Source: a bacterium (GTDB taxonomy: Bacteria; Patescibacteriota; Minisyncoccia; JAHIHE01; DAOWLE01). From it: DNA of 57,570 nt. Shown one piece after another: positions 5,734-21,720 of the stretch. The stretch is from the NCBI GenBank assembly GCA_030643545.1, contig DAOWLE010000022.1, forward strand, positions 1 to 57,570, in the 5' to 3' direction. The position numbers and the translations under genes were made by a program. The notes under the pieces were generated by a model. It worked only from the letters and a program-made list of their open reading frames with translations. It was not told the DNA's origin and searched no databases. The first letter of the stretch is position 1; each line of letters opens with the position of its first letter.

Positions 5734-6723
5734 TTATTCTTTCTTGGCGAAAATTTGCCAAATATTTAACGAGCTGTTATTTGACGGCAATTCTCCGTTT
5801 AAAAATTCTTTTACTTCATTGATCGGAATAACAAAATTCACTAATTCTTCCTCTTCTTGGTTGGCTAAATATATTCCGACAACTTCACCCTTCAAATTTA
5901 TCAAAACCGAACCGCTGAATTCTTCGCCTAATTTTCTGTCAATTTTTATTAAAGTGCTTGTTTTTTTCTCTTTGGATGTTTCGCCTTCTTTATTTTCGGA
6001 AATTTCTTCTATCTGATCAATCCGTGAAACCATAACGCTTGTTGTTTCCTCCCCGACTACGCCGAGTTTCTGCCCGACTTCCAGATTATCCGAATTGCCC
6101 AAAAGAATTACCGGTAAATTAGACGCTTCTATCTTAAAGAGAGCAAGCCCCAAAAGAGATTCTTTTTCAATTAATTTTCCTTGAAATGTTTCATCGCTTT
6201 GTGTTTTAATTGTTAAAGATTTCCCTTTTTCTTTATTTTTGGAAATTTCGTTTTCAACAGATGAAATAATTTTTTGTTCAGTTAGAATAATGCCGTCGCT
6301 GCTGAAAATAAATCCCGGCGATTTGGCTGTTTCAGAAATTACCGCGACTTTTGCCGGCAAGATTTTTTTAATCGCCTGAAGCAGTATTTCCTCTTCAGAC
6401 ATTTTTATTTCTTTTGTCTGGTTGATAATTGTCGTTCCGTTGCTCGTTTTTTTCAAAAATTCATAGCGGCTCAATGACGGATGATTAGACAAATAAGGAA
6501 ATAAAAAACGGTCAGCCAAAATTCCGCCAAGCCCGCCGATGATTAAAATAAAAAATCCGATAAAAAACAATCGGACAATTTTATAAAATCGTTGCGGGCG
6601 ATAAGGTTTTGGAAATGTTTCTAATGGCTCCGTCTGATTCTCGCTTTTCTTAAAAAAATCTTCAGCTGTTCTTGAAGCCGTTTTCTGCCGAGCTTTAATA
6701 GATTTTATTTTAATATTTTTCAT
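5734..6723 (-). CDS. Membrane-anchored trypsin-like (HtrA/S1C) protein, probably catalytically inactive
   Basis: TM helix; PGFIFSSDGIILTEQK (His lost), GLALFKI (Asp lost), FSGSVLINLKGEVVGI. Confidence 0.8.
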   Translation of the reverse strand: MKNIKIKSIKARQKTASRTAEDFFKKSENQTEPLETFPKPYRPQRFYKIVRLFFIGFFILIIGGLGGILADRFLFPYLSNHPSLSRYEFLKKTSNGTTIINQTKEIKMSEEEILLQAIKKILPAKVAVISETAKSPGFIFSSDGIILTEQKIISSVENEISKNKEKGKSLTIKTQSDETFQGKLIEKESLLGLALFKIEASNLPVILLGNSDNLEVGQKLGVVGEETTSVMVSRIDQIEEISENKEGETSKEKKTSTLIKIDRKLGEEFSGSVLINLKGEVVGIYLANQEEEELVNFVIPINEVKEFLNGELPSNNSSLNIWQIFAKKE

Positions 6724-6793
6724 AGATAGAATATTATAAAACAATCTTCTATTAAAATAATAACATAAAATTTAATTTTCAACAAATATAATT

Positions 6794-7711
6794 ATGTCCG
6801 CAATTAATTCTCTCATCATTAATTACCTTGAATATCTTGAAATTGAGAAAAATCGCTCTAAGAAAACGATTGAAAACTATGATCGTTATTTGAAAAGATT
6901 TATTAACTGGTCAAAAATTGAAAAACCGGATAAGATTAATCTGGAGGCGATTCGCAAATACAGAATTTTTCTTAATCGTTTTCAAAACGAAAAAAAAGAA
7001 ACGTTAAAAAAAAATACCCAGAATTATCACTTAATCGCCTTAAGAAGTTTTTTAAAATATCTTGCCAAGCGGGATATTAAAACTTTAGCCGCGGAAAAAA
7101 TAGAATTAGGAAAAACATCTGTCCGCCAGGTTGAATTTTTGGAACCCGACGAATTAAACCGTCTTTTGGAAGTGTCAAACAAAGGAAATCTAATCGGTTT
7201 AAGAGACAGAGCGATTTTGGAATTATTTTTTTCAACTGGTTTGCGCGTTTCAGAACTTTCTAAATTAAACCGAAAAGATATTAATTTGAAAAAGGATGAG
7301 TTCACCGTACGGGGGAAAGGGGATAAATTAAGAATAGTTTTCGTTTCTGAGCAGGCAAAATCCGCGCTCAAAAATTATTTAAGCGAAAGAACTGATTTAG
7401 ATAAAACATTATTTATTAGAATTGATAGAGCGCAAAAAAATAAAAATGACCAAGAATCTTTCCGTTTAACTCCCCGAAGTATTCAGAGAATTGTTAAAAA
7501 ATACGCGCTTGCCGCCGGGATTACCAAGAAAGTTACTCCGCATACAATCCGCCACAGTTATGCCACCGATCTTTTAGCCGCCGGAGCCGACATTCGTTCG
7601 GTCCAGACAATGCTGGGGCACAGCAGCATCACCACCACGCAAATTTACACTCATATTACTGACAAAAAATTAAAGGAAACTTATAAAAGCTATCACGGTA
7701 AATCAAAATAA
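6794..7711 (+). CDS. Site-specific tyrosine recombinase, XerC/XerD-like
   Basis: RDRAILELFFSTGLRVSEL, GKGDKLR, TPHTIRHSYAT, LGHSSITTTQIYTH. Confidence 0.95.
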   Translation: MSAINSLIINYLEYLEIEKNRSKKTIENYDRYLKRFINWSKIEKPDKINLEAIRKYRIFLNRFQNEKKETLKKNTQNYHLIALRSFLKYLAKRDIKTLAAEKIELGKTSVRQVEFLEPDELNRLLEVSNKGNLIGLRDRAILELFFSTGLRVSELSKLNRKDINLKKDEFTVRGKGDKLRIVFVSEQAKSALKNYLSERTDLDKTLFIRIDRAQKNKNDQESFRLTPRSIQRIVKKYALAAGITKKVTPHTIRHSYATDLLAAGADIRSVQTMLGHSSITTTQIYTHITDKKLKETYKSYHGKSK

Positions 7712-7734
7712 TTTTTATTTTTAAATTTAATATT

Positions 7735-8451
7735 ATGTATCTTTCTATCGTCATTCCCGCTTATAACGAAGAAAAGCGGATCGGCAAAACAATTTTTGCA
7801 ATAAATGAATATTTACAAAAGCAAAATTATCCTTATGAAATAATCGTTTCTGACGACGGTTCAAAAGACAATACAGTTGAATTGGTAAAAAAATTAGGAG
7901 AAAAAATAGAAAATTTAAGAGTAATTGACAATAAGGAAAATCACGGAAAAGGATATGTTGTCCGCCAGGGAATTATGGAAGCAAAAGGAGAATATCGCTT
8001 GTTTATGGACGCTGACAACGCGACGACTGTAAATCAGGTTGAAAACTTGCTGCCATTTTTTAAAGACAGTTATGATGTTGTAATCGGCGATCGCGATTTA
8101 AAAGAAAGCGAGATTAAAAAACATCAATCGCGTTTTAAAGAAACTCTGGGAAATATGGCAAATGTTTTAATTCAAATTCTGGCAGTGCCGGGAATTAAAG
8201 ACACCCAATGCGGGTTTAAATGTTTTTCAAAAAAATTCGTGGAAAACATTTTTCCAAAATTAAAAGTGGACCGCTGGGGTTTTGATATTGAAATTTTGGC
8301 TTTAGCGAGAAAATTCGGATATAAAATAAAAACCGTTCCGGTTGTCTGGATAAACGACGAAGAAAGTAAAGTTTCTATGAGCGGATATATTAATACTCTT
8401 AAAGAATTGTTTCAGATAAAGTGGAATTTAATAAGCGGAAAATATAAATAA
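7735..8451 (+). CDS. GT2 glycosyltransferase, dolichyl-phosphate beta-glucosyltransferase-like
   Basis: SIVIPAYNEE, DDGSKDNT, NHGKG, FMDAD, DTQCGFK, WGFDIE. Confidence 0.9.
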   Translation: MYLSIVIPAYNEEKRIGKTIFAINEYLQKQNYPYEIIVSDDGSKDNTVELVKKLGEKIENLRVIDNKENHGKGYVVRQGIMEAKGEYRLFMDADNATTVNQVENLLPFFKDSYDVVIGDRDLKESEIKKHQSRFKETLGNMANVLIQILAVPGIKDTQCGFKCFSKKFVENIFPKLKVDRWGFDIEILALARKFGYKIKTVPVVWINDEESKVSMSGYINTLKELFQIKWNLISGKYK

Positions 8452-8465
8452 TAACAAATTCATTT

Positions 8466-8978
8466 ATGATAATTTTAGGAATTGATCCGGGAACTGCTAC
8501 AATCGGATACGGAGTTATTACGGCAGGCGGCAAACGGCAGGCGGCAAACGGCAAATTACAAAAAGAAGATTTGGAATTAATTGATTATGGGTGTATTATT
8601 ACTAAGCCGGATTCAAGCACGTCTGAACGGCTTTTAATTTTAAATAAAGAATTGAAAAAAATAATTGAAAAATTCAAGCCGGATCTGATGGCTGTGGAAG
8701 ATATTTTCTTTTTTAAAAATTTGAAAACAGCGATTAAAGTCGCCCAGGCGCGGGGAGTAATTTTATTAACCGGAGAAGAGGCAAAACTGCGGATTTTTGA
8801 ATACACCCCTTTGCAAATAAAACAGGCGATTGTCAGTTATGGCCGGGCTGATAAAAGGCAGGTTCAGGAAATGGTTAAAATTTTATTAAGATTAAAAGAA
8901 ATTCCAAAATCCGACGACGCCGCCGATGCTTTAGCTGCGGCAATCTGCTGCGGACATTCAGTCGGAAATGGGTTTTAA
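8466..8978 (+). CDS. ruvC: Holliday junction resolvase RuvC
   Basis: ILGIDPGTATIGYGVI, AQARGVI, EYTPLQIKQAI, DDAADALAAA. Confidence 0.97.
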   Translation: MIILGIDPGTATIGYGVITAGGKRQAANGKLQKEDLELIDYGCIITKPDSSTSERLLILNKELKKIIEKFKPDLMAVEDIFFFKNLKTAIKVAQARGVILLTGEEAKLRIFEYTPLQIKQAIVSYGRADKRQVQEMVKILLRLKEIPKSDDAADALAAAICCGHSVGNGF

Positions 8979-14530: not shown

Positions 14531-15672
14531 AAAAGAAGAAATTAAAAATTGCTATGTTTTGCACTAATAAAATATCAACTCCGTTAAAAGGGAAAACGAT
14601 ATATGCTCCAGTAATGGTAACCAATCAATTAGTAGAAGGGATGATAAAAAAAGGGCACGATGTTACTCTTTTTGCCACTAAAGGTTCAAAAACAAAAGCT
14701 CGTCTTATTCATTGTGGATTAAATCCATTGGAATCGAAAAAAGTTTTGTTTAATTTGTTTGAAAAAGAAAAGGTTGAAACAGATCGTTTTTTTGAAAAAG
14801 TTTTACATTCTTATGAAACAATCGCTATTTCAAAAATTTATCAAATGGCTCAAAAAGAAAAATTTGATGTTATTCATATTCATCCATCAGATCGCGCCTT
14901 GCCTTTAGCTCCTCTTGTTTCAACACCTACAATTTTTACTCTGCATGATCCTATTGCTCCTTGGAGAAAATTTATTTATTCAGCTTATAAAAATATTCCT
15001 CAGATTTATTATGTTTCAATAAGTGACATACAAAGAAAACCATTGAAAAATTTGAATTATATTAACACTATTTATAACGGACTTGATTTAGAAAAATATC
15101 CTTTCAACGAAAAACCTAAAGAATCATTTATTTGCGCCGGAAGAATTACACAAGAAAAGGGAATTCATACTGCCATACAAGGAGCTAAAAAAGCTAAGGT
15201 TAAACTTTCTATTATCGGGTTTGCAAAAAAAGAAGAAGATTATTGGCAAAAAAAGATTAAGCCATATCTTGATAAAAATATAAAATACAAAGGAATGGTT
15301 CCTCTATCAGAAGTTTTTGAATTTTATCAAAATTCCAAAGCATTGCTTTTCCCTATCCAATGGGAAGAGCCATTCGGCTTGGTAATGATTGAAGCAATGG
15401 CCTGCGGTACGCCGGTGATTGCATTTAATCGAGGAGCGGTGCCGGAAGTGGTAAAAGATGGAAAAACAGGATTTATTATTCCTCAATTTGATAAAAATAA
15501 AAAGGTCAATATTAAAGGATTGGTTGAGGCAATAAAAAAGATAGATCAAATAGATAGAAAAGAATGCCGTAAACATGTTGAAGAAAATTTCACTATTAAA
15601 AAAATGGTTGATGGATATGAAGATGCTTATTATAAAGTAATTAAAGATTGGAGGATAAAAAATGGAAAATAA
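14527..15672 (+). CDS. GT4 glycosyltransferase, tandem paralog 3
   Basis: GHDVTLFA, WEEPFGLVMIEAMACGTPVI. Confidence 0.9.
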   Translation: MKKKKLKIAMFCTNKISTPLKGKTIYAPVMVTNQLVEGMIKKGHDVTLFATKGSKTKARLIHCGLNPLESKKVLFNLFEKEKVETDRFFEKVLHSYETIAISKIYQMAQKEKFDVIHIHPSDRALPLAPLVSTPTIFTLHDPIAPWRKFIYSAYKNIPQIYYVSISDIQRKPLKNLNYINTIYNGLDLEKYPFNEKPKESFICAGRITQEKGIHTAIQGAKKAKVKLSIIGFAKKEEDYWQKKIKPYLDKNIKYKGMVPLSEVFEFYQNSKALLFPIQWEEPFGLVMIEAMACGTPVIAFNRGAVPEVVKDGKTGFIIPQFDKNKKVNIKGLVEAIKKIDQIDRKECRKHVEENFTIKKMVDGYEDAYYKVIKDWRIKNGK

Positions 15673-16777
15673 TTTTGAAAAATATTCTTTTTTTAATATT
15701 GAAGCAATAGAAGATAAAAAAAGCAATATAAAAGAAAAGTTAAAAAATATTTCTGAAGATTTATCAGAAAAAAAACTTATTCCTATCAAACTTTTTCAAA
15801 AAAACAATATTATTGATTTAACTATTAAAAAAAAACATAAAACAATTTTTAAAGGTCCTTTTATTGTTTTGGAAGTAAAAAAAACAGACAAAAATGGAAA
15901 AATTAAAAAGTTTTTATACAAAGGTCAGATTAAAGACAATGTTCCGTTCAGAGATATAAGGAAAGAAGAAATAATGTATAGAGATATTTTGCCGGAGATT
16001 TATAAAAATCTTCCAGAAAATATTAAAAGAAAAGTCGTTTTTCCAAAATTGATTGAAGGTGTAAGTCCAAAAACAAAAATAAAATCAATTGTTAGAGAAA
16101 AAATAGAAGGCGTGATTTGCGGAACTCACGATGCGACTAAAAAAAATATCTGGGATAAAAAAGATATAGAAGCAATTTGTTATCTTATAAAAGAATTTCA
16201 GAAGTTAAATCCAGCAAAAATAAAAAAGGGTTTTCCGGAACTTTTAGAAAGAAATTTTATTGAGTTTTATAAAAATAATTTTGAAAAATACGCTGAACCG
16301 GTAAAAAATTTACTAAGTGAAAAATATGTAGAAAAAATGAAAAAACTCCTTCAAAAAGATGAAAAGGTTATTTCAAAACAATCGCCCGTTCTGCTTTCTG
16401 AAGATATATTTTGTTTTAATATTTTTAAAACATCCGAAGAAAAACTTGGATTTATTGATTGGGAAAGGCCTCATATCGGAAAAGATATAAGCGCGGATTA
16501 CGGAAAACTTATTTCAAGATTATGGACAAATCCTGAATTACAAGAAGAAGCTATTAAAATTACTTTAAAAATAAATAAAGAAAATCCACAGTTTAAAGAT
16601 ATGTTAAGAGCAAGTTTAGTATTTTTGGAAGGAGGATATTCTTTTCATTATTACTTTAAAAAATTAGATAGTAATAATCCGCAAGAAAAAAGGGAGGCGG
16701 AAAAAGCCGTAAAAGTTTTCAAAAAACTTTTTAAAGATATTTTAGATAATAAAGGAATATGGCAGGAAAAAAATTAA
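15662..16777 (+). CDS. APH/choline-kinase-like phosphotransferase fold protein
   Basis: FPKLI, LLSEDIFCFNIF (degenerate HxDxxxxN), GFIDWE. Confidence 0.55.
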   Translation: MENNFEKYSFFNIEAIEDKKSNIKEKLKNISEDLSEKKLIPIKLFQKNNIIDLTIKKKHKTIFKGPFIVLEVKKTDKNGKIKKFLYKGQIKDNVPFRDIRKEEIMYRDILPEIYKNLPENIKRKVVFPKLIEGVSPKTKIKSIVREKIEGVICGTHDATKKNIWDKKDIEAICYLIKEFQKLNPAKIKKGFPELLERNFIEFYKNNFEKYAEPVKNLLSEKYVEKMKKLLQKDEKVISKQSPVLLSEDIFCFNIFKTSEEKLGFIDWERPHIGKDISADYGKLISRLWTNPELQEEAIKITLKINKENPQFKDMLRASLVFLEGGYSFHYYFKKLDSNNPQEKREAEKAVKVFKKLFKDILDNKGIWQEKN

Positions 16778-18636
16778 TAAAAAATAATAATCAAATCTCG
16801 AAAAATCTCTGGATTGCCGGAGGATATTATGTTGATTTTGATGAGATGAGCCAATTCAGAATTATCGGGCCAAATAATCATCTTTATTGCGGCTTAATTG
16901 ATATTCCGCGCCATAAGATAAAAATAGAAAGTATTAAGGATAAAAATAATATTTTAGAAATAAAAGGATATTTTCTCGGAAAAAATATTAATCTATATTA
17001 TCCGGCGATGGATGATATCAGAACTGTAAGAAATTTAACAAAAAATGCCTGTTCTTTTCTTGAAATCAGAAATCAGCATTTTAATCAAATGATTCCTAAG
17101 AAAATTCAATTTAAAGATACAAAAAACAGTTCATCAATTACTTTCAAACGGTCGTATGAAGAAAATTTATATTATCAAACAACTTTCAATTTTCCAAAAA
17201 ATATTCTGGTTGAAAAAATAAAAAAGCCGTTTAAGGGATTTAAAATTTCCGCAAAAACAGAAAATAAAATTAAATTTATTATTTTAGCGGAAACAAATGA
17301 TTTGCGCCAAAAAGAATTCAAGGATTTTTTTCTTTCAGGCACAAATTTTTTTGATTTTAAAAAATTTGGCAAGCATTCAAAAGCAGTAAAAAAAATTTGG
17401 CAGAGAACAGAAAAAGAAATTATTCATCTTATCAACTGGGGTAAAACTTCCGGCGATAATTTTGGAACAATTTTTCCCCGCGACTGGATGGAATCAGCGG
17501 ATTTAGGAATTCATGATTTGCGTCCGGAAATTATCAGTTATATGTATGAAGCGTCTTTAAAAAATGTCAATCAAAAAGGTGAGAGCTGGCATGAAGATGT
17601 TGTTGGAGAATATAAATATGAGCATGAAATTTCCGGCAAGGATATTTTAGACCGCCATATGATTGATATTGAACCGCATTATATTATCGGATTGAAAAAT
17701 TTGCCAAGCGATTTTTTAGTTGATAAAAAAAATAAAGAAAAGATGAAAAAAACGGCTGAATATTTAGTCAGGCAAGCGAGAAAAAATGATTTTATTATTT
17801 TTAAAAAACTTCCTAAAAATATTCAGAAAAAAGGCCAAAAATATTATTTTAGCGGCAATTGGCGGGATAGTGGCTGGGCGTTTAAAAAAATCAGCCAAGT
17901 AATCGCTCCTTTTGATGTAAATTGCGTTTTTTATCCGGAAGCGTTAAAAACATTAAAAAAATTCCAGAAAAAATTAGGTTTAAAAATAAAAGACATAAAT
18001 AAATTAATAAAAAAATGGGAAGGCAAAAAGAAATATTATTCTTTTAAAAATTCAGACGGAAAATCAGCTTACGCTTTAGCTGTTTACGGAATAGAAAATA
18101 AAAAAGGAAAAATAGAATATAAAAAAATGAAAGTTAATCATTTAGACGAATCATATCTTTTCACTTACAATGACGGAACACAAACAGATATAAAAAGTTT
18201 TTGCCAGCGTCTTTTAGATTCAAATTATTTTTATACGCCTTCCGGTCCAACGCTTATATCTAAAAATAATAAATACGGCTACACTTCTAACGAGTATCAC
18301 GGATTAGTTGTCTGGACAAAACAAACCGCTTTTGTTATTTTAGGATTAAGCAAATATTTAAAAAAAGCTATTGTTGAAGAATGGCCGAAAGATTTACAAA
18401 AATTAATTAAAAAAACGATTTTGACTATTTCTGAAGATACAATAAAAACTTTCGATTATTTAGATTATATTCCAGAAGTCCATTGGGACGACAACGGAAC
18501 TCCTTTGCTTTATTCTGATCAGCCGAATATGAAAATGTCCGTAAGCGAAGTCCAACTTTGGTCGGCTGTTGGCGCAAGAAGAATTATCAGAAAATATTAC
18601 GAATTGTTAACTGATCCAAAATATAAAAAAATATGA
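16759..18636 (+). CDS. Six-hairpin glycosidase, amylo-alpha-1,6-glucosidase/debranching-like
   Basis: TIFPRDWMES, NWRDS, PFDVN, YHGLVVW, QLWS. Confidence 0.65.
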   Translation: MAGKKLIKNNNQISKNLWIAGGYYVDFDEMSQFRIIGPNNHLYCGLIDIPRHKIKIESIKDKNNILEIKGYFLGKNINLYYPAMDDIRTVRNLTKNACSFLEIRNQHFNQMIPKKIQFKDTKNSSSITFKRSYEENLYYQTTFNFPKNILVEKIKKPFKGFKISAKTENKIKFIILAETNDLRQKEFKDFFLSGTNFFDFKKFGKHSKAVKKIWQRTEKEIIHLINWGKTSGDNFGTIFPRDWMESADLGIHDLRPEIISYMYEASLKNVNQKGESWHEDVVGEYKYEHEISGKDILDRHMIDIEPHYIIGLKNLPSDFLVDKKNKEKMKKTAEYLVRQARKNDFIIFKKLPKNIQKKGQKYYFSGNWRDSGWAFKKISQVIAPFDVNCVFYPEALKTLKKFQKKLGLKIKDINKLIKKWEGKKKYYSFKNSDGKSAYALAVYGIENKKGKIEYKKMKVNHLDESYLFTYNDGTQTDIKSFCQRLLDSNYFYTPSGPTLISKNNKYGYTSNEYHGLVVWTKQTAFVILGLSKYLKKAIVEEWPKDLQKLIKKTILTISEDTIKTFDYLDYIPEVHWDDNGTPLLYSDQPNMKMSVSEVQLWSAVGARRIIRKYYELLTDPKYKKI

Positions 18637-19651: not shown

Positions 19652-19733
19652 TGTCATTCCCGCGCAGGAGAGAATCCACTATTAAAATAAGTGTTACTAT
19701 AAACATAGATTCCTGCCTCCGCAGGAATGACAG
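19652..19733. repeat. GTCATTCCC...GGAATGAC composite palindrome family
   Basis: TGTCATTCCCGCGCAGGAGAGAATCC...GATTCCTGCCTCCGCAGGAATGACA; other copies near 22687, 23227, 37572, 48376-48505. Confidence 0.75.
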
Positions 19734-19748
19734 ATTGAGAAAATTATC

Positions 19749-19794
19749 AAAACAAATAATCTCCTTACCGATCGGTAAGGAGATTATTTGTTTT
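19749..19794. repeat. 46-bp perfect palindrome; second partial copy at 20840-20860
   Basis: AAAACAAATAATCTCCTTACCGATCGGTAAGGAGATTATTTGTTTT. Confidence 0.85.
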
Positions 19795-20053
19795 CGGACT
19801 TGACATTTTTTCGGACTTATGATAATCTATAAAAACAAAATACAAAAAATAATTAAATGAAATTCAATTATTCCCCTCTTGCTGTGTCCCGTTTTTTTCG
19901 GGAAGAGGGATTAGGAGTGGATTTGCTCTTTTAAAATTAAATGAAGAATCTCTATGATTATTTGTTTTTTTTGAAACGAATGATTACAAGGATTCTTCAT
20001 AAAAGGAGGTAAAAAGAATCTCAAAAAAGGAGAATAAAAAGAAGTGACAAAAA

Positions 20054-20287
20054 ATGGTAGAAGAAAGTTTAGTAGATTTAACAGAAGCGAAAATATTGCG
20101 CGATGAGCATAATTTCAGAAAAGCAATGGAAACCACAGACAAGATTGAAAAAGATTTGGAAAAGAAATGGGAATTAGGGGACATAGAAGAATTTCTATAT
20201 CTTCTGGAAATATTGAGAATAGAAAATTTTAGAATATCTGTTTTGTTTAAAATGTTAATTGAAAAGAAAGCAAAAAGAGGTGAATAA
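20054..20287 (+). CDS. Hypothetical helical protein (SD-class)
   Basis: 77-aa ORF; purine-rich leader with AGGAGG and AAGTGA; promoter TTGACA(19800)-N17-TAATCT. Confidence 0.6.
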   Translation: MVEESLVDLTEAKILRDEHNFRKAMETTDKIEKDLEKKWELGDIEEFLYLLEILRIENFRISVLFKMLIEKKAKRGE

Positions 20288-20291
20288 AACA

Positions 20292-20744
20292 ATGAAAGCA
20301 TTAGAAGAAAAAACGGGAAAGAAAGTAGAAAGCGAGGATTCTGAATTGGCTCGGATAGGGGTATCACTGCCATCTAATCTGTTGAATAAGTTTGAGAAGA
20401 TAATTAGAGGGCGAGGATATTCATCAAGGTCTGAAGGGATAAGAGATGCGATTAGAGCATATATAATAGAACATGAGTGGATGGAGCGCGAATCCGGAGA
20501 AAAGATAGGAGTTATAGCCTATACCTACGACCATAGTCAAAGAGAATTACGGAGGAAACTGGAGGAAACAGAGAATGATTTCAAAGATATTATAGAAACA
20601 TCCAGCAGAGCTTTAGTAGATGATAAAACTGATTTCGCGACAGTGACAGTAAAGGGCGATGCCAAACAGATAAAAGAATTAGCAGAAAGAATAATGAGTC
20701 AAAGAGGAGTAAAGTATTTGAAATTAACGATAACTCGCATCTGA
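20292..20744 (+). CDS. nikR: NikR-family regulator of methanogen-like type, Ni ligands lost
   Basis: RHH domain RIGVSLP..LL.KF..II..RGYSSRSEGIRDAIR; YDH; GVKYLKLT; SD GAGGTGA. Confidence 0.88.
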   Translation: MKALEEKTGKKVESEDSELARIGVSLPSNLLNKFEKIIRGRGYSSRSEGIRDAIRAYIIEHEWMERESGEKIGVIAYTYDHSQRELRRKLEETENDFKDIIETSSRALVDDKTDFATVTVKGDAKQIKELAERIMSQRGVKYLKLTITRI

Positions 20745-20874
20745 AAAGAACAAAAAACTAAAAACTTAAGGGGAATAAATTCATTTTGAATGTCCCCTCT
20801 TTTTTTTGCTTAAATTTTAAAACAAAAACTTCTCCTTTACTTACCGATCGGTAAGGAGATTTAGTAATTGAGAA

Positions 20875-20996
20875 TTGACCCCGCCCTAACTCCAAAGCAC
20901 AACTTTCATTTAAAAATAACCAAAAGGCGAAGCCGCCTTGCGGCTCTGTCATTCTATCATAAAAAATATTGTGAAAGAATTAGGGCGGGGTTGACA
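20875..20996. repeat. TTGA-flanked inverted-repeat element abutting a -35 box (copy B)
   Basis: TTGA-CCCCGCCCTAA...TTAGGGCGGGG-TTGACA; interior homologous to copy C. Confidence 0.8.
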
Positions 20997-21096
20997 AATA
21001 TTTAAATACTTGATAAAGTTTGATTGATGGTAAAAAAAAAGAAGCCATCCAATAGAAACAAAAAAAATAATATTAAAAAATAAGAGGGTATGAAAG

Positions 21097-21300
21097 ATGG
21101 ATATAAAACCAATAAGAAAAATTTTGAAAGAACAAAGGAGAAAAGCAATATATGAAGGAGAGCGGCAAGAACTTTTACAATATGGTATAAATATTTTCTG
21201 TGAGCCGGATGGAAGAATTCATGGCGAAGATAACGAAGAGGGTAAAACTTTTGAAGGAATTGATGCAGTATTAGAAGAAATAAAAGCAAGGAGTGGGTAA
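21097..21300 (+). CDS. Hypothetical protein (SD-class)
   Basis: GAGGGT before ATG; promoter TTGACA(20991)-N17-TAAAGT. Confidence 0.6.
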   Translation: MDIKPIRKILKEQRRKAIYEGERQELLQYGINIFCEPDGRIHGEDNEEGKTFEGIDAVLEEIKARSG

Positions 21301-21318
21301 AAAAAGAGATGATGTGAA

Positions 21319-21720
21319 ATGAAAAAAGAAAAAATAGTAGCAATCGGTATCGTTGAAAAAGGAGGAAAGATATTATTAATCCGTCGTGTAATTCAAGAAG
21401 GAGATCTTCAATGGTGTTTTCCTGGTGGAGAAATAGAAACGAAAGATGGCACAGAACAAGAAGCAATAATTAGGGAAGTCAAGGAAGAAACAAATATTAA
21501 TTGTTTGCCAGTTAGCAAATTAGGAGAAAGAATACATCCCGATACAGAAAAAACCTTAACCTATTGGAGATGCACTTACAAAGACGGCAAACACGCTATA
21601 CAAGATCCAAAAGAAATAGCTGATATTTTATGGGCTTCACCTTCAGAAGTATTTAAATTGATCACTACTGATATTTTCCCGCCCGTTAAACTCCTCTTGG
21701 AAGAAATCTTAGCGAAATAA
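21319..21720 (+). CDS. NUDIX hydrolase, MutT-like (SD-class)
   Basis: WCFPGGEIE...EAIIREVKEETN Nudix box; GATGATGTGAAATG RBS. Confidence 0.9.
   Translation: MKKEKIVAIGIVEKGGKILLIRRVIQEGDLQWCFPGGEIETKDGTEQEAIIREVKEETNINCLPVSKLGERIHPDTEKTLTYWRCTYKDGKHAIQDPKEIADILWASPSEVFKLITTDIFPPVKLLLEEILAK

Follow-up and report, generated by a model that had tools for sequence, protein, structure and literature searches.

A NikR-family gene with a substituted nickel site and a segment of ANME-1 origin in a cold-seep Patescibacteria bacterium

The NikR-family gene and its nickel site

The DNA analysed here, referred to below as the window, is a stretch of 57,570 nucleotides (positions 1 to 57,570 of contig DAOWLE010000022.1), and the gene in question is P0001 (20292..20744), which encodes a NikR-family protein and is located on the chromosome of a cold-seep bacterium of the Patescibacteria (Candidate Phyla Radiation, CPR; Parcubacteria/Paceibacteria-like). 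Like the other ORFs of the window for which coordinates are given below, P0001 lies on the forward strand. It was delineated by open reading frame (ORF) translation together with Pfam and NCBIfam matches, starts with ATG, comprises 150 codons and a stop, and is preceded by a Shine-Dalgarno-like GAGGTG (20277..20282), read from the sequence 9 nt before the ATG. The window, with a G+C content of ∼32%, carries one transfer-messenger RNA (tmRNA) and five tRNAs, and the named homologs of its dCTP deaminase belong to Parcubacteria, Paceibacterota or Patescibacteria. The host genome consists of 845,155 bases in 45 contigs, with an estimated completeness of 95.23%. A viral or phage setting was rejected on the grounds of the tmRNA in the window and of the 95%-complete, 845-kb CPR genome.

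The N-terminal residues 1-17 of the protein (20292..20342) form a hydrophilic, CPR-specific extension, which is longer in other members of the CPR clade described below and absent from the NikRs of ANME-1 (anaerobic methanotrophic) archaea; its coding DNA shows no nucleotide similarity to the ANME-1 loci. It is followed by a ribbon-helix-helix (RHH) domain at residues 21-58 (20352..20465; Pfam RHH_1, PF01402, E 1.5e-9) and by a NikR_C domain, an ACT-like tetramerisation and formerly metal-binding module, at residues 72-148 (20505..20735; PF08753). The NikR_C match spans the full profile (1-77) with an E value of 1.1e-21 and 77.2 bits against a cut-off of 22. Sequence matches in the PDB comprise the NikRs of P. 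horikoshii (2bj1, E 7.4e-26), H. pylori (2ca9, E 5.9e-19) and E. coli (1q5v, E 2.1e-14), all three of which are homologous to P0001 over both domains. Among the NCBIfam models, P0001 passes NF002169 (157.2 against a cut-off of 111), NF003381 (119.6 against 105) and NF002815 (99.4 against 83), and falls below the cut-offs of TIGR02793 (91.5 against 175.45) and NF001884 (99.6 against 119).

According to the passages of PMC9860126 cited here, the solved NikRs contain four square-planar His3Cys nickel sites per tetramer, which activate DNA binding, and the conserved site of H. pylori NikR is built from His99, His101, Cys107 and His88' of the opposing subunit. In P0001, all four ligand positions are replaced. 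The PDB alignment places H. pylori His88', His99, His101 and Cys107 exactly onto N95 (codon 20574..20576), R106 and L108 (codons R106-A107-L108, 20607..20615, in place of H-x-H) and D114 (codon 20631..20633). The alignments were made to the P. horikoshii and H. pylori proteins; the corresponding ligands of E. coli NikR are those which we take to be numbered 76, 87, 89 and 95. The original prediction had described a protein with an intact DNA-binding domain and all four nickel ligands substituted, and the substitutions are confirmed, the strings on which that description was based being literally present (EN at 20571-20576, RAL at 20607-20615 and D.A at 20631-20639). The replacement is not an accident of alignment, since H,H,H,C occupies these positions in 108 of the 120 best-matching homologs from the database and in 113 of 150 representatives of 50%-identity clusters, which were ranked by a profile of the degenerate clade, a choice that favours ligand-poor proteins.

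P0001 is the sole NikR_C match in the 845-kb genome, and CbiM, NicO and the large subunit of [NiFe]-hydrogenase were not found in this 95%-complete assembly (PF01891, PF03824 and PF00374, 0 matches each). As the RHH domain is intact and all four high-affinity ligands are replaced, it is reasonable to regard the protein as nickel-blind; on the evidence of its sequence, it is a NikR-family homolog which does not qualify functionally as a nickel sensor. Curated hidden Markov models nevertheless still call such proteins ‘nickel-responsive regulator NikR’, and in the parts of a recent survey cited here the family is handled as a uniform nickel sensor (bioRxiv 10.64898/2026.05.01.721428).

A recombinant patch of ANME-1 origin

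The DNA-binding domain is indeed intact, as had been predicted: in addition to the RHH_1 match, protein identity to ANME-1 NikR amounts to 88% at residues 17-68, as compared with 51-54% at residues 69-150, and the RHH domain is almost invariant between the CPR clade and the ANME-1 NikRs. At the DNA level, codons 17-68 are 92% identical to the ANME-1 loci L010, L011 and L015 (87-88% at third positions), whereas the DNA of the C-domain is only 61-62% identical to them (47-49% at third positions). With respect to L010, nucleotide identity is 91.5% inside a patch located at 20345..20548 and 55% in the rest of the gene, and dS (the synonymous distance) against ANME-1 is 0.15 in the patch part and 2.06 in the rest. 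The two parts are alike when compared with the congener L004 (87% and 77% nucleotide identity). The patch, which was delimited by blastn, codon comparison and a breakpoint scan and which covers the RHH domain, the linker and the first strand of the C-domain, is assigned to the L010 clade of ANME-1; the blastn match to L010 extends over 20342-20548 (91.3% over 207 nt, E 2e-78).

The same contrast is seen in codon choice. Where the residue is identical in the window and L010, the two genes also agree in the codon at 50 of 56 positions within codons 18-85 and at 10 of 28 beyond them (Fisher p=7e-7), and the corresponding counts for L004 against L010 are 39/54 inside and 7/22 outside (p=0.0017). 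Among the 22 pairs chosen by hand for this comparison, no such contrast was present in L034 and L035 (p 0.35 and 0.83) or in five ANME-ANME control pairs; Nealsonbacteria-type relatives, unlike P0001, lack the L010-like patch. Within the segment 20356-20542, delimited by a breakpoint scan of the window, L010 and L035, 40 informative sites are ANME-like and 4 are CPR-like; in the remainder the numbers are 21 and 45 (p=2.5e-10). L004 gave p values of 1.4e-8 to 2.4e-8 and the same 3' breakpoint as the window, and in neither case were the p values matched by any of 300 permutations.

DNA trees of the patch and of the C-terminal part, each built from 43 rows, are in keeping with this picture. The patch places the window and L004 within a clade that also holds six ANME-1 loci (Shimodaira-Hasegawa-like approximate likelihood ratio test, SH-aLRT, 96), and the C-terminal part unites the four CPR genes on a long branch with a support of 100. 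Forcing the window and L004 into the ANME-1 clade was rejected for the C-terminal part by the approximately unbiased (AU) test (p-AU 0.026). Against this must be set the patch alignment itself, for which CPR monophyly was not rejected (p-AU 0.154), so that the topological incongruence rests on the C-terminal test and on the codon statistics. Since the distance of L010 to the remaining ANME-1 clades is the same in the patch and outside it, the donor was the archaeon.

The simplest reading of these sequence comparisons is a single event in the ancestor of the genus, by which ANME-1 DNA would have overwritten the 5' two-fifths of an old, ligand-poor CPR gene. This recent archaeon-to-CPR recombination patch is the unexpected and new part of the finding: that a CPR bacterium shares 200 nt, at ∼91% identity, with the ANME-1 which dominates its seep is direct evidence that DNA moved recently from an archaeon to a bacterium through homologous recombination, and it provides a starting point, open to testing, for tracing the partners of CPR bacteria in cold seeps. 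As the genome encodes ComEC (E 7.6e-60) and RecA (E 9.6e-136), it is plausible that this host can take up foreign DNA and integrate it by homology. Whole-genome blastn against ∼0.5 Mb of archaeal loci, which cover small parts of the archaeal genomes, returned the nikR patch and one weak 69% match only.

It might be objected that the mosaic is an assembly artefact, reads from an abundant ANME-1 nikR having been joined into the contig of the CPR bacterium. The public ‘cold seep metagenome’ run X1 does contain such a gene: a 728-nt contig with a depth of 1672 matches the window at 20345-20548 only, with 19 differences over 204 positions, and runs into ANME-1-type NikR sequence on both sides. The X1 evidence, moreover, consists of contigs and not of raw reads; X1 is probably the source of the window, which would deprive its contigs of independence, and the congener L004 is the only independent assembly showing the mosaic. 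However, a 1156-nt contig of the same run covers 19765-20900 with 0 differences at an even depth of 8.9 and bridges both patch junctions, the 19 differences from the abundant variant are spaced so that almost no 31-mer is common to the two (as read from the difference table), and L004, assembled independently, has the same patch and the same 3' breakpoint. The artefact explanation is therefore almost certainly wrong. The ANME-1-type nikR contig in X1 also shows that the donor lineage co-occurs with the CPR bacterium, at a contig depth ∼190-fold higher, depth being a rough measure of abundance.

Archaeal origin and stepwise ligand loss

The 80 best loci in species-representative genomes were compared, 75 of which carry archaeal titles, with Methanophagales/ANME-1 at the top (59-67% identity); those of CPR type are L004 (congener), L034 and L035 (Ca. 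Nealsonbacteria). A protein tree was built from 78 rows, namely 56 of the 80 loci, 15 further proteins, 6 outgroup representatives and the window, the omitted rows being mostly duplicate Methanothrix/Methanocella entries and short contigs. In this tree the window, L004, P0003, L034, L035, P0046, P0055 and P0059 form a CPR clade (SH-aLRT 95), which is nested in a 52-row ANME-1/Alkanophaga clade (SH-aLRT 98). Because the CPR clade lies inside the ANME-1/Methanophagales NikRs, the sequences indicate that the gene moved from an archaeon of this type to the CPR, with a subsequent stepwise loss of ligands. A second degenerate clade (P0072, P0080 and P0132; SH-aLRT 95) falls in the same, unresolved region of the tree. 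Three loci (L019, L045 and L074) carry ANME-1- or methanogen-type NikRs on short contigs of metagenome-assembled genomes whose titles name Nitrosotalea, Desulfuromonadales and Cloacimonadota. In the tree, L019 hardly differs from L013, a Methanophagales locus, and the three placements are probably binning errors, not transfers.

The ligand columns within the CPR clade read C/S, S, H/Y and C/Y in Nealsonbacteria-type proteins, which, in difference to P0001, keep two or three possible ligands, and N/S, R, L/P and D/Y in the subclade of the window; P0045 and P0055 read C,S,H,C, while P0003 has Pro and Tyr among the ligand positions. The ANME-1 NikRs (L010, L011 and L015; P0005 and P0018) share the two-domain architecture and length of P0001, with 63-66% overall identity, but retain H,H,H,C and lack the N-terminal extension, P0001 being the reverse on both counts. 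CbiM-type transporters were present in four of the five ANME-1 genomes searched, and genes resembling carbon monoxide dehydrogenase/acetyl-CoA synthase were recognised at ANME-1 loci by reading of ORFs, no family search having been made for them.

Ligand loss is not unique to P0001. Non-canonical columns occur in 12 of the 120 best homologs, the query counted, and 37 of the 150 cluster representatives differ from H,H,H,C: 11 full-length proteins keep none of the ligands, 20 keep some and 6 are gapped or truncated at these positions. A sizeable minority of the clusters near P0001 lack the nickel site. NikR_C is present in 4 of 401 sampled genomes of the phylum, including the host; of the other three, one is canonical and two, belonging to another family (G106 and G154), read Q,E,F,K. 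The latter two derive from a different, bacterial-type NikR and represent a second, unrelated CPR lineage. Relatives of P0001 were found in 2 of 61 related genomes, again with the host counted, and one relative with a degenerate site is deposited under the name ‘NikR [Candidatus Parcubacteria bacterium]’. The ligand-poor NikRs of other CPR (Nealsonbacteria L035/P0045, ‘bacterium’ L034/P0049, Parcubacteria P0125/P0072 and G106/G154) have a degenerate nickel site like that of P0001, and, as in the host of P0001, such genes are the single NikR_C genes of small genomes (0.6-0.7 Mb in G456-G458). Judged by these sequences, ligand-poor NikR homologs recur, in the CPR especially. The reservation attached to the original prediction, that NikRs without ligands might be quite ordinary, is accordingly justified as far as recurrence is concerned, other CPR lineages included, and only to that extent. 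No title or abstract reporting or characterising ligand-less NikR proteins was found in the literature searched, most subscription journals lying outside that search.

Selection, predicted tetramer and possible function

In comparison with the congener, dN/dS (the ratio of non-synonymous to synonymous substitution rates) is 0.14 in the DNA-binding domain and 0.38 in the C-domain, which points to purifying selection on both. Where the protein departs from ANME-1 NikR, it does so mainly in helix alpha-3 and the ligand loop, and R87, L90, E91, E94, F97 and I101 are invariant in the eight CPR-clade proteins, unlike the ANME-1 consensus. From the sequences, this region looks rebuilt, not decaying. 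This bears on the notion that P0001 is a functionless relic which was transferred, has no purpose in a cell without nickel enzymes and is now in decay. The absence of detected nickel transporter and [NiFe]-hydrogenase genes from the 95%-complete genome, the loss of four ligands out of four and the faster evolution of the C-domain would all fit such a relic. However, the frame is open and full-length in the window, L004, P0003 and five further members of the clade, dN/dS is below 1 in both domains, the NikR_C match still has an E value of 1e-21, and the gene has been kept in a reduced genome of 845 kb. A relic is hence highly improbable.

In a homotetramer model of four copies of residues 18-150, the score was 0.50 as compared with 0.07 for the best control, at least 94% of the contacts were common to the runs and the partner pLDDT (predicted local distance difference test) was at least 73. 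Of 30 solved one-chain pairs, 20 attain the mark applied to this score, as does 1 of 23 single chains. The modelled subunit interface includes residues 87-108, and the former metal site lies in it. Metal-independent RHH repressors are well known from the Arc/MetJ/CopG superfamily, in which an RHH dimer reads the DNA and oligomerisation provides cooperativity; these repressors share the RHH domain with P0001 but do not possess the ACT-like tetramerisation domain NikR_C.

Taken together, the best explanation, which we consider probable if only narrowly so, is that P0001 is a chromosomal NikR-family RHH regulator of the CPR which no longer senses nickel, having passed through transfer, ligand loss and acquisition of the ANME-1 patch to become a nickel-independent repressor. 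Phylogeny and codon statistics show that a NikR gene passed from an ANME-1/Methanophagales-type archaeon to CPR bacteria, in whose lineage the C-terminal domain lost the square-planar His3Cys site step by step and helix alpha-3 was remade around the clade-conserved R87, E91 and E94. Later, in the ancestor of the genus, homologous recombination replaced ∼200 nt coding for the DNA-binding domain with nikR DNA from the ANME-1 clade which dominates the same sample. The resulting protein is predicted to keep a NikR-like tetramer carrying two RHH dimers, to bind DNA without nickel and to act in the CPR cell as a constitutive or otherwise-controlled repressor, probably of its own transcription unit, with the palindrome found only on both sides of the gene as the candidate operator. 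A nickel-independent tetrameric repressor acting inside the CPR cell is, we infer, the most likely function. The CPR clade constitutes a natural experiment on the replacement of nickel in the allosteric switch of NikR.

Several points weigh against this explanation. Nickel independence, DNA binding and autoregulation are deduced from sequence, other residues of P0001 could still bind a metal or another ligand, and passing the tetramer mark may reflect likeness to solved NikR tetramers and not binding. The most serious competitor is that P0001 is still a sensor, with a C-domain that binds another metal or a small molecule and controls DNA binding allosterically. It would account for the purifying selection on the C-domain (dN/dS 0.38), for the conservation of the remodelled region within the clade and for the retention of Trp63, which corresponds to a member of the allosteric network of H. 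pylori NikR, Trp54; the C,S,H,C proteins of the sister subclade (P0045 and P0055) could still hold a metal, and the cited part of PMC3087415 suggests a zinc response for a methanogen NikR homolog which adjoins a zinc transporter. On the other hand, apart from Asp, no typical soft-metal ligand is left at the four positions in this genus, the replacements themselves are not conserved (Pro and Tyr in P0003), and no transporter or enzyme gene that would hint at a ligand adjoins P0001. We therefore regard an alternative sensor as unlikely and retain the nickel-independent repressor as the preferred interpretation.

The original prediction went further and proposed a mimic acting on the NikR operators or tetramers of an archaeal host. 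In its present form, this would mean that the CPR bacterium lives on ANME-1 and delivers a nickel-blind NikR onto host operators or into host tetramers, thereby uncoupling nickel uptake from nickel supply. The DNA-binding domain is 88% identical in amino acids and 91-92% in nucleotides to nikR of one ANME-1 clade, that clade is ∼190-fold more abundant in run X1, and the patch amounts to a renewal of the DNA-reading head from that very archaeon. Furthermore, Patescibacteria which attach to and parasitise methanogenic archaea are described in the consulted portions of PMC10936435 and bioRxiv 10.1101/2022.04.20.488981, which makes an ANME-1 partner conceivable. Yet the gene is chromosomal in the CPR bacterium and nothing indicates delivery: the N-terminus is hydrophilic with no signal-like stretch (judged by eye), and no secretion or injection genes adjoin P0001. 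No physical association between CPR and ANME-1 is on record in the titles and abstracts found by our literature search, which left most subscription journals outside. Mixed tetramers are not obviously favoured by a C-domain only 51-54% identical to that of ANME-1 NikR, and ligand-poor NikRs also arise from bacterial-type NikR in an unrelated CPR lineage, where the logic of an archaeal host does not apply. Finally, on mechanical grounds alone, recombination is expected to be limited to the best-conserved stretch, in which the two genes were still sufficiently alike, and such plain recombination explains the host-like head without any host-directed function. The mimic thus finds no support and is very unlikely. 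Its bolder relative, in which a CPR partner or parasite of ANME-1 takes up host DNA again and again and keeps a nickel-blind host NikR, with the head held in register by recombination, and uses it on host operators, either in the host or on host DNA inside the CPR cell, is very unlikely indeed; if it were true, nickel homeostasis of the host would be decoupled from nickel supply by a NikR kept by the CPR bacterium. The preferred interpretation remains a repressor acting within the CPR cell.

Flanking palindromes and the search for a DNA target

A perfect 28-bp palindrome, AATCTCC-N14-GGAGATT (19758..19785, without strand), sits 507 nt upstream of the start of P0001, its perfect symmetry extending to 19749-19794, and a second, imperfect copy with an insertion of ∼5 nt in the left arm (20830..20862, likewise without strand) begins 86 nt after the stop codon. 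These two copies flanking P0001 are the only ones in the genome, and looser dyad patterns yielded no convincing extra sites. Thirty nucleotides of the palindrome are identical upstream of the ortholog in the congener L004, where the flanks differ. The NikR box is a 27-28-bp inverted repeat of the form 7-N13/14-7, in which the outer half-sites are recognised (PMC545781), and the 7-N14-7 form of the palindrome corresponds to this geometry. It is thus a candidate for the operator of P0001.

Most of the further observations speak against such a role. The palindrome is conserved through its centre, and the insertion in the second copy shifts the outer half-sites; neither fits the recognition of outer half-sites by NikR (PMC545781). 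It also resembles a hairpin or terminator, the upstream copy folding as RNA with -29.2 kcal/mol (z -8.1). No palindrome was found near the homologs in L034 and L035 or in their genomes, and a metagenome scan for the 18-mer core returned 14 unrelated contigs, of GC content 0.50-0.70, near which tblastn detected no relatives of P0001. On the archaeal side, analysis of dyads upstream of 41 nikR loci yielded no ANME-1 NikR operator, and the upstream regions of seven ANME-1 cbiM loci contain no clean inverted repeat. Two dyads recurring upstream of nikR loci were rejected as operators, being situated inside the coding sequence of the upstream gene, and matches of the palindrome in ANME-1 genomes, all with 3 mismatches and the recurring ones in coding regions (one cdhC-like), were attributed to chance.

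Downstream of P0001, a terminator-like hairpin GGGGA...TCCCC followed by a run of T8 (20768..20810, forward strand) was recognised as an inverted repeat and by RNA folding; the consensus scan did not list it. A TTGACA hexamer follows the upstream palindrome, but the scan revealed no acceptable -10 element after it and no promoter is claimed there; among the sequencing runs listed for the stretch, none was of RNA. The best sigma-70-like match (TTGACA-17-TAAAGT with TG, 10/12) is located at 20991-21019, after the second palindrome, and precedes the region 21097-21720 with a 67-aa ORF and a gene for a NUDIX protein. If the palindromes are operators, these genes may form a second unit that is controlled in the same way.

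Neighbouring genes and other features of the window

The neighbours of P0001 encode a ROK kinase, the NUDIX protein, glycosyltransferases and an O-antigen ligase-like protein, none of which is nickel-related. A candidate ORF of 77 aa (20054-20287), without Pfam match, ends 4 nt before the start of P0001 and has no counterpart in the aligned intergenic region of the congener L004. Two large ORFs of 371 aa (15662-16777) and 625 aa (16759-18636), situated between the glycosyltransferases and the ROK gene, likewise gave no Pfam match at E <= 0.001. The surroundings of the NikR-like gene in L035 (Ca. Nealsonbacteria; 6506-8584) are unlike those in the window: it is preceded, on the opposite strand, by a gene for an ELP3-like radical SAM protein, and downstream of it come a DUF7411/PAPS-reductase-like gene, a SLOG cluster-4 (LOG-like) gene, a small EF-Tu-domain-2-like ORF and an acylphosphatase gene.

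Between the ROK gene and the upstream palindrome, an element of ∼85 nt (19652-19735) with inverted ends TGTCATTCC ... GGAATGACA was noticed, which is missing at the matching place in L004. The motif at its ends occurs 109 times in the 845-kb genome, and positions 19700-19740 are covered at a depth of 410-1730 in three runs, so that the element looks like a dispersed repeat akin to miniature inverted-repeat transposable elements.

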